A DNA stretch of 64,000 nucleotides, taken from positions 2,336,001 to 2,400,000 of the forward strand of contig OY762492.1 of NCBI GenBank assembly GCA_963665845.2. Reading direction: 5' to 3'. Positions 12,007 through 13,252 of this stretch are shown here, in pieces. Each line of letters begins with the position of its first letter. Position 1 is the stretch's first letter. Position numbers and translations under genes: made by a program. Source of the stretch: Candidatus Poribacteria bacterium (GTDB lineage Bacteria; Poribacteria; WGA-4E; GCA-2687025). The notes below the pieces were generated by a model. The model was not told the origin of the DNA and did not search any database. It was given only the letters and a program-made list of their open reading frames with translations.

Positions 12007-12909
12007 ATGGCAATGTTGATGGAGCGGACGATGCAGCTTTCCATGAGTTCAGCGACCAGACCGCTGACCGCATCTCTTTTAAATCTAGATGCGCAGGGCG
12101 CGCATAACTTTCATGGGTTTTTTACCGATCAACCGATGAGTATTCTGCCGACCATCGAGATAACGGCGGTTGAGGATACGGCGAATGTTATTGTCGGGAA
12201 TATCGAAGGCGGATCGTTCCATTTCAGCCGCGCGACTGCGCATCTGGAAACGAAAAATATCGAGGGTTTTAAGTCAGAACTTTTGAGCGCCATTCGATGT
12301 TTTGACGAAGCGATTCGGCTTCTCAAAAATGAAACGGATGTTCCGGATGATGCGGCGATGGGGCATCTCTATTTTGCCCGCGGCGGCGCGGCATTTTCAT
12401 TGGAGATCGGATTGAGATTGGTTTCGCCGCAGGCGTCGCCGTATCTAAAGAAGGCGATCGCCGACTTGGCGGAATCAAAAAAGCGCTTTGTCAAATCAAC
12501 GCATCTCAATCGCGCCCGAACGGTTCTTTTCCTCTTGGGAAGCGCCTACATGTGCGCAAAGCAGTGGTCGAAAGCGATCGCATGCTTCAAAGACATCATC
12601 CGGCAGGACATGTACTGCGCCCCCGCCTTCATATGCCGCGGACTTGCTTATCGAGAGCTTGGCGAAATAGACGAATACGAGGAGGATTTCCGAATCGCCG
12701 TTTCGCTGCAGCCCGATCTGGTGAACGACGAAACATACGGCGCCGAATTTAGCCGCATCAAAAAAAGAAGCGAAAAAGAAAAAGAAAAATGGGAAGCGGC
12801 ATTCGCGCTGCCGGAGTCCAAGATATTCCTGGAGCAGACGGCTAAAGAGGTCCTTGAAGAGCATCGCCGAGGTGAAACCACACCGCTCAATATCGAAGAT
12901 TTGAAATGA
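12007..12909 (+). CDS. TPR-repeat protein with C-terminal type II antitoxin-like tail
   Basis: TPR-like helices (AIRCFDEAIRL, YFARG, AFICRGLAY); tail KWEAAF...FLEQTAKEVLEEHRRGETTPL. True start may be 12031 (GGAG RBS). Confidence 0.75.
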   Translation: MAMLMERTMQLSMSSATRPLTASLLNLDAQGAHNFHGFFTDQPMSILPTIEITAVEDTANVIVGNIEGGSFHFSRATAHLETKNIEGFKSELLSAIRCFDEAIRLLKNETDVPDDAAMGHLYFARGGAAFSLEIGLRLVSPQASPYLKKAIADLAESKKRFVKSTHLNRARTVLFLLGSAYMCAKQWSKAIACFKDIIRQDMYCAPAFICRGLAYRELGEIDEYEEDFRIAVSLQPDLVNDETYGAEFSRIKKRSEKEKEKWEAAFALPESKIFLEQTAKEVLEEHRRGETTPLNIEDLK

Positions 12910-12910
12910 A

Positions 12911-13252
12911 ATGCGCTCATTTACATGCCGACGCTTCTGGGATGCGTTTAAAAAACGCCCTAAGAAGATTCGAGACCGAACGCGTGAAGCCTACGAGTTC
13001 TTCTCCAAATACCCAAATTACCCTAGCCTAGATTTTAACAAATTAAAAGGATTTCCGACGCTGTATTCCGCAGAAATAACCGAAAACTACCGAACGCTGG
13101 GCGTAGTAGAAAAGAACGACGTTATGTGGTTTTGGATCGGCCCGCACGACGACTACATGAACAAACTTAAAAACCCAAGCATCCAAAAATCTATCCGTAT
13201 GGCTCACGAAAACCTAAAAAAACGGCAAGCAAAACACGGTCGACAAAACTAA
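12911..13252 (+). CDS. RelE/ParE-superfamily toxin-like protein
   Basis: RRFWDAF...AYEFF..YP.YPSL.F..L...YS..I..NYR.LG...WFWIGPHDDY pattern; starts 1 bp after the upstream stop. Confidence 0.85.
   Translation: MRSFTCRRFWDAFKKRPKKIRDRTREAYEFFSKYPNYPSLDFNKLKGFPTLYSAEITENYRTLGVVEKNDVMWFWIGPHDDYMNKLKNPSIQKSIRMAHENLKKRQAKHGRQN

Follow-up and report, generated by a model that had tools for sequence, protein, structure and literature searches.

In RelBE, a toxin-antitoxin (TA) pair of type II, the antitoxin RelB neutralizes the toxin through its C-terminus (PMC12301738). In the Panacea group, one accessory domain, hypothesized to be a sensor, sits on several neutralizing domains (PMC10440598). In the toxin-antitoxin-chaperone (TAC) systems HigBAC and CmdTAC, a toxin that targets translation is controlled by an exchangeable module that binds proteins (10.1101/2024.02.24.581848), and the antitoxin domain of CapRel doubles as a phage sensor (10.1101/2023.12.08.570793). 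The TPR arrays of Avs proteins bind or sense phage proteins (10.64898/2026.01.04.697583). The signals that set off type II TA systems are still a matter of debate, and few antitoxins with a sensor have been described.

Here we analyze a gene pair in a 64,000-nt stretch of a Candidatus Poribacteria genome (hereafter the window), in which a TPR protein with an antitoxin-like tail is followed by a small toxin gene. Our leading interpretation, to which we give about an even chance, is a type II TA pair whose TPR protein neutralizes a RelE/YoeB-fold toxin via its tail, and whose swapped TPR part is a protein-binding input that frees the toxin.

Results

Gene pair and promoter

The pair consists of two adjoining open reading frames at 12007-12909 (300 aa) and 12911-13252 (113 aa) with a 1-bp gap (Table 1). 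A first-pass annotation had described both frames, the gap, WFWIGPHDDY and other motifs, and all are present. The fusion gene probably starts at ATG 12031, giving 292 aa, because GGAG sits 7 nt 5' of this ATG, the database proteins P0003 and P0004 begin there, and at 12008-12028 the DNA of related strains is interrupted by insertions or exchanged for other sequence. Residue numbers of the fusion protein count from 12007. Pfam and NCBIfam return only TPR-type matches for this protein and no RHH, Phd or HTH domain, and it has no strongly hydrophobic (export or membrane) segment. The pair is flanked by genes for a BNR/YCF48-like propeller and a xylose-isomerase-like barrel (Pfam) and is richer in AT than these neighbors, as the annotation had stated: GC is 51% for the fusion and 44% for the toxin gene versus 60% and 62% for the flanking genes (mean of genome ORFs ≥400 aa, 60.2 ± 2.9%). 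RNA-library contigs cover 12028-12807 (X8) and 13143-13363 (X9); the flanks are covered too, and such contigs cannot prove transcription, so we left them out of the evidence.

Fusions of a TPR part to this tail number 23, with 12 in the window genome (G000) and 11 in a congener (G001), both from a single genus of sponge-associated Poribacteria. The claim that the pair has its own promoter stands in part. A -35/-10 pair lies 58-66 nt 5' of the start in 7 of the 12 paralogues, the same position as the window promoter, but the TTGAGT-17-TAAACT sequence scores only 8/12, below the promoter-scan threshold, and the scan does not list it. The annotation was right that a repeat adjoins the promoter; the "MITE end" is, however, a dispersed palindromic repeat and not an established MITE, with 1,402 blastn pieces and 866 copies of its ATTCCC-N8-GGGAAT core on contig C1. 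This core presumably resembles the Neisseria dRS3 repeat. Variants of the palindrome occur on C1 in 86 (N20) and 45 (N29-30) copies, and another motif near 11938, TGTCCCAAYT, is repeated 350 times. The repeat occurs ≤200 nt 5' of 5 of the 12 paralogues versus 490 of 3,030 long ORFs, and we therefore excluded it from the module.

Table 1. Features of the TPR-antitoxin/toxin locus (window coordinates)
Feature	Position	Strand	Details
Dispersed palindromic repeat	11782..11965	.	ATTCCC-N8-GGGAAT at 11782-11801; N20 variant 11866-11897; repeated stretch ~11812-11965
Predicted sigma70-type promoter, TTGAGT-17-TAAACT	11975..12003	+	-35 at 11975-80, -10 at 11998-12003
GGAG ribosome-binding site and probable true ATG start 12031	12021..12033	+	
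TPR-antitoxin fusion gene	12031..12909	+	292 aa from 12031, 300 aa from 12007
Variable N-terminal helical hairpins	12172..12495	+	Residues 56-163; TPR-like in model; most different between paralogues
Two canonical Pfam TPR repeats	12523..12720	+	Residues 173-238; TPR_1/TPR_2 above Pfam cut-off
Antitoxin-like tail	12766..12906	+	Residues 254-300; homologous to C-terminal half of stand-alone ~70-aa genes before PF24732 toxins
PF24732 toxin, RelE/YoeB (BECR) fold	12911..13252	+	R61, W73, G77, H79 invariant; deviant R16, T24, N43, E55
Basic C-terminal toxin helix	13163..13249	+	Residues 85-113

Toxin

The second gene encodes a predicted toxin of the Pfam family PF24732 (ParE_like; 29 bits versus a cut-off of 24.4), in line with its first-pass assignment as RelE/ParE-like; a PF05016 match is absent in Pfam. 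Its structure model (pLDDT 89) has a BECR fold plus a C-terminal helix. Against 3bpq, the model reaches Z 10.3 with an rmsd of 2.3 Å over 84 residues, and fold comparison ranks RelE (Z 10.3), YafQ (9.8) and YoeB (9.1) above ParE-type chains (≤8.2). Foldseek returned 25 matches at E≤0.001 with YoeB, RelE and YafQ entries at the top, and the sequence profile of the toxin reaches RelE entries only, weakly. R61, W73, G77 and H79 are invariant in all 34 other toxin sequences. Positions 55, 61 and 79 are spaced as Arg59, Arg65 and His83 of YoeB (PMC3814384), mapped by spacing and fold and not by residue superposition; the Arg59 position is Glu in the window copy, and no equivalent of YoeB Glu46 was identified. 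Because of the Z ranking, the invariant residues and the YoeB-like spacing, a RelE/YoeB-type mRNase is likelier than a ParE gyrase inhibitor on modeled fold and residue pattern, and the family is probably a ribosome-dependent mRNA cutter.

The suggestion that usual Arg residues are missing holds in part. At position 55, 26 of 34 other toxins have Arg and the window toxin has Glu; position 43 is usually Lys (31/34; Asn here), and at position 41 Arg occurs in only 15 of 34 other sequences. The window toxin also carries Arg at position 16 (Leu in 33/34) and Thr at position 24 (Ala in 30/34). The basic C-terminal extension of about 30 aa was described correctly: it holds nine K/R and one D/E, forms a helix in the model, and is also present in the orthologue and in two congener toxins. 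Binding of the TPR part to this extension is disfavored, as congener toxins with and without it stand behind 92%-identical TPRs.

The deviant residues raise the question of whether this copy is attenuated or decaying while its family works as described, a view compatible with the other explanations that we regard as somewhat unlikely. R16 and T24 are private to the window strain, with four related runs encoding Leu and Ala (12957 G>T, 12980 A>G); the orthologue P0017 has L16, A24 and K43; E55 falls at the position matching YoeB Arg59; and a contig of run X5 lacks the toxin. However, the frame is intact, the four invariant residues are kept in a confident model, the R61 codon is changed only synonymously in four runs (13091 C>A, Arg kept), and both E55 and the extension are common to the window toxin and its orthologue.

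Antitoxin-like tail

The C-terminal tail of the TPR protein is homologous to small genes that precede the same toxin elsewhere. In other Poribacteria genera, the PF24732 toxin is preceded, at a tight junction, by acidic genes of 66-105 aa. In a profile-profile comparison of the 23 fusions with 12 stand-alone genes, residues 254-297 aligned to the C-terminal half of the latter (P 93%, E 3e-7). These 12 genes come from 12 of 18 toxin loci of relatives; L011, L013 and L016 were left out for their longer upstream genes and L018-L020 because they have no clear tail. When the stand-alone profile was run against 28,668 ORFs of the window genome, the top seven matches were fusion tails (the window tail fifth, E 0.0084), and no stand-alone tail gene was found among them. 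In the reverse direction, the fusion-tail profile matched short frames in 28 other genomes of 176, including 72-aa genes; of 13 such loci retrieved, a short tail gene is present in 12, and in 7 the toxin gene follows immediately downstream. Pairwise identity between a fusion tail and a stand-alone gene is 49% over residues 261-299. The first-pass proposal that the tail resembles the short antitoxins preceding this toxin family is thus borne out in both profile directions. Neither the tail nor the stand-alone genes gave a convincing match in Pfam, NCBIfam or PDB sequence searches, and an Atlas search with fusion residues 205-300 gave generic TPR clusters only. Matches of the tail and stand-alone genes to gp41 were dismissed as helical noise.

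The stand-alone genes are putative antitoxins, judging from position, charge, analogy and an automatic Atlas cluster name. The calculated pI is acidic for the fusions (4.4-5.6) and basic for the toxins (8.8-11.2). We consider it very probable that the tail binds the toxin. In the family f8, from three genomes, the gene before the toxin carries a similar tail behind another N-terminal domain (L011:1130-1456, L013:990-1490, L016:1194-1499), which by eye looks HicB-like. From these genes, the tail seems portable.

TPR part

TPR or TPR-like helices of 90-250 residues take the place of the N-terminal ~30 residues of the stand-alone genes. The structure model of the fusion (pTM 0.78) is all-helical from residue 56, with about four hairpins followed by two tail helices, and a structure search found it to resemble generic TPR structures. 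The fusions fall into several TPR classes that are mutually only 20-49% identical. Repeat numbers, with the TPR-UPF0175 genes (below) included, range from 2 to about 20, and short forms have only 2-3.

The TPR parts are exchanged between tail-toxin units. Across 12 pairs, identity of the tail followed that of the toxin (Spearman 0.72) more closely than did identity of the N-terminal TPR (0.48), figures that are descriptive since the pairs in the Mantel comparison are related to one another and do not count as independent. Copies 1680518 and 3608159 of the window genome are 93% identical in the tail and 76% in the toxin versus 34% in the N-terminal TPR, and at the DNA level they resemble each other over 433 nt only. 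The reverse is seen in a congener tandem of three, where the TPRs are 91-92% identical and one copy differs from the others in tail (48-52%) and toxin (37-42%). Among the 12, the copy whose tail and toxin come nearest to those of the window (60% and 48%) has a TPR part of another class (30%). Values of dN/dS were 0.19-0.70 for TPR parts (8 pairs) and 0.11-0.35 for toxins (3 pairs); all were <1, with no sign of positive selection in either. Toxin-less and tail-less TPR copies gave whole-gene values of 0.43-0.54. These comparisons indicate that tails stay with their toxins and TPR parts are exchanged, with purifying selection acting on both. Tail-less relatives of the fusion TPR part lie at G000:C1:2515846-2516382, 1112361-1112897 and 802143-802757 and at L037:3264-3797, and one pair of tail-less relatives between the two genomes has a dN/dS of 0.49.

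Because TPRs were repeatedly recruited, diversified and swapped, we favor a role of the TPR part in taking a regulatory input over one of only stabilizing the tail, although the input role is itself about as probable as not. A purely stabilizing role ranks close behind. The TPR part would then be a folded carrier that shields the short tail from proteolysis, recruited on account of the many TPR genes that Poribacteria have; the pair would be an ordinary selfish or stress TA system that senses nothing. A SUMO fusion did enable an isolated Phd-C tail to neutralize its toxin (PMC10440598), no other repeat is as common in Poribacteria as the TPR (PMC3909097; the window genome yielded 75 TPR ORFs), the defense context is weak, and the low repeat number of the short forms and the near-identical TPRs that serve three different congener toxins fit a scaffold equally well. 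A passive carrier leaves unexplained, however, the range of repeat numbers and the low identity between TPR classes, as well as the purifying selection on copies that have lost tail or toxin. On balance, we consider the carrier explanation less likely, with a chance of roughly one in three or slightly below.

Distribution and related strains

Toxin linkage is strict in one direction. Every PF24732 toxin found in the two genomes lies behind a fusion (7/7 in the window genome, 5/5 in the congener). Of the 12 fusions of the window genome, 7 have an intact toxin, 1 has a toxin remnant and 4 are orphans, and five of the congener's 11 have an intact toxin. The four toxin-less fusions and the remnant in the window genome count against our leading interpretation. 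Searches of 151 and 176 genomes of the phylum, with at most 33-35 candidates scored per genome, found full-length fusions in these two alone. A "longer" tail-profile search (7,995 candidates scored) gave 25 matches; TPR domains are present in 24, and one carries the name Poribacteria. A representative-library search with a profile of the last TPR plus tail was swamped by generic TPR proteins, with 5 of the 150 listed matches near full-profile, and is thus of little use for judging the range beyond Poribacteria. A JGI metagenome scan gave no match.

Orthologues of both window proteins at 83% identity come from other assemblies, and three further studies have contigs that run through the whole pair; among the indels listed, all lie at 13241-13271. 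Runs with related DNA include sponge metagenomes; run X3 was not counted as independent support because it may be the source sample. Given these orthologues and contigs and the 23 fusions that the two genomes hold, a misassembly or a stop-loss in one genome is a negligible prospect, and we found nothing in its favor. The fusion is therefore no frameshift artifact of one genome, a doubt that the first-pass annotation had itself raised.

In the X5 contig, from another study, 87 nt replaces 386 nt, so that the TPR gene is kept and the toxin lost. This loss, together with the toxin-less and tail-less TPR copies that persist under purifying selection, could mean that the TPR protein serves some separate function in the cell or the symbiosis and that tail and toxin only enforce retention of its gene. 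We consider such an addiction tag improbable, with little chance of being correct: the lack of a hydrophobic export or membrane segment makes host contact unlikely, tail-toxin units move between TPRs, and toxin loss is evidently tolerated.

TPRs before other antitoxin types

TPRs also stand before unrelated antitoxin-like segments. The window genome has four TPR-UPF0175 genes, one with about 20 repeats and three followed by DUF3368. Of 30 DUF3368 loci, 12 have the TPR-UPF0175 fusion, and these come from 8 of 19 genomes belonging to three families (TPRs outside the window genome were called with our own profile); a stand-alone UPF0175 gene is present at 14 of the 30 loci. Two further TPR genes of the window genome end in a tail related to 82-87-aa genes before PIN toxins, of which the two scanned are AF2212-like. 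A 181-aa helical gene before another PIN family has eight TPR stretches in 1 of 7 copies. In all, at least 19 of about 75 TPR ORFs in the window genome either have an antitoxin-like segment at their end or stand before a toxin (12 from the window family, 4 UPF0175, 2 with the AF2212-type tail and 1 before PIN). PF05016, HicA, BrnT, Phd and MazE were not found in this genome, which is 90% complete.

Several related arrangements were observed. Locus L057 (G000:C1:1299500-1311500) holds the four TPR-UPF0175 and three DUF3368 genes among methyltransferase-HNH and Eco57I-type genes, and its UPF0175 part weakly matches the PADLOC candidate PDC-S70. Loci L047, L052, L058 and L118 carry tandem arrays of a 178-182-aa helical protein without a Pfam match, followed by PIN genes, several of them broken; such arrays lie at G000:C1:1674378-1680436, 3609022-3612130 and 3493623-3496585, and a search of 30 relatives at E≤1e-10 gave no member of their PIN family. 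A MazF/PemK-family gene overlaps the end of a 637-aa ORF (G000:C1:2243337-2245597), with no small antitoxin gene seen. A protein with an FRG domain and TPRs (L061:1050-2345, Pfam) and a similar TPR gene (L059:1581-3236) lie directly upstream of near-identical methyltransferase genes; from the former, TPR fusions may extend to other putative defense domains.

Defense context

The association of the fusions with defense islands is weak when tested against background. Restriction-modification or Abi genes lie near 7 of the 12 copies, and a methyltransferase lies ≤6.5 kb from 6 of the 12; 22% of randomly chosen positions and 18 of the 61 TPR genes outside the family are as close to one. At the window itself, the nearest DNA methyltransferase is 50 kb away, and PADLOC 2.0 assigned no family to either protein. 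The first-pass idea that the module senses phage proteins thus gains little direct support, and we consider a phage or other foreign protein as the TPR input to be possible and rather unlikely. Two further features of the surroundings may be recorded. Within 6 kb of the module, the only defense-like neighbor is a 624-aa SNF2-type helicase (15844-17718) with generic PADLOC helicase matches, preceded by a 208-aa ORF. In its 4 Mb, the window genome matches PF01555, a family of N6/N4 DNA methyltransferases, 63 times, an unusually large expansion; the majority of these matches take in almost the entire domain and lie in frames of 260-620 aa. Counting four families, C1 has 80 methyltransferase sites.

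Discussion

The TPR-toxin pair of the window is explained most readily by neutralization through the tail and by control through the TPR part. In favor of this explanation are the gene order shared with stand-alone pairs, the tail homology, the toxin linkage, the charge contrast, the tracking of toxins by tails and the natural swaps. The C-terminal tail would wrap the toxin, as the RelB C-terminus does, and so neutralize it. A partner bound by the TPR part would push the tail off the toxin or make the antitoxin open to proteolytic attack, and the freed toxin would likely cut mRNA on the ribosome. Since the fusion has no recognized DNA-binding domain, control would be post-translational instead of autorepression. 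TPR-controlled release fits both the shuffling of TPR parts and the repeated recruitment of TPRs. The natural chimeras, in which the same tail and toxin occur with a different TPR and the reverse, could separate sensing from neutralizing.

A wider and bolder view is that the TPR-TA repertoire amounts to a set of combinatorial intracellular pattern receptors, a minimal NLR-like immunity built from type II TA parts, with TPRs grafted at least three times onto unrelated tails and reshuffled by recombination. We offer this as speculation that is unlikely as a whole. The fusions also matter for sponge symbiosis: Poribacterial TPR proteins mostly figure in the literature as factors of host interaction (PMC3909097), yet at least 19 TPR ORFs in the window genome are linked to antitoxin-like segments or toxins. 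If the receptor reading is true, some "eukaryote-like" TPR proteins of symbionts would move from host interaction to phage defense.

TPR-carrying type II antitoxins are apparently an undescribed variant. We found no description of TPR-fused antitoxins in the open-access literature, a scope that leaves subscription papers and supplementary tables outside; "TPR" does not occur in the main text of PMC10440598 or in the accessible text of PMC11980606. The toxin family PF24732 is not among the 13 toxin Pfam families in Table 1 of PMC11980606, whose "ParE-like" entry is PF15781.

The pair shares with RelBE, YefM-YoeB and DinJ-YafQ the antitoxin-toxin order, the coupled genes, a basic BECR toxin and an acidic partner with a predicted C-terminal neutralizer, but the partner has a TPR region in place of an RHH, Phd or HTH N-terminal domain. 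Pairs of a stand-alone ~70-aa gene and a PF24732 toxin have the same tail, toxin family and tight junction; they differ in their short N-terminal stretch, which in the window family has given way to TPR residues. As in Panacea (PanA), one accessory domain is found on several unrelated neutralizing domains and toxins, whereas the accessory domain here is an N-terminal TPR array of variable length that is itself diversified and swapped; the Panacea domain has no Pfam match in the 300-aa protein. TAC systems have an additional third gene of the SecB-like type together with a ChAD tag, in contrast to the two genes of the window, where the module is fused to the antitoxin and Pfam scans of both flanking genes show no adjacent SecB-like chaperone gene. 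Unlike in CapRel and Avs, the toxin is a separate gene, there is no NTPase, and 2-4 hairpins stand against the large Avs sensors. The pair works like a type II TA system with an accessory-domain antitoxin; it belongs to none of the described groups and is closest in concept to Panacea, TAC and CapRel.
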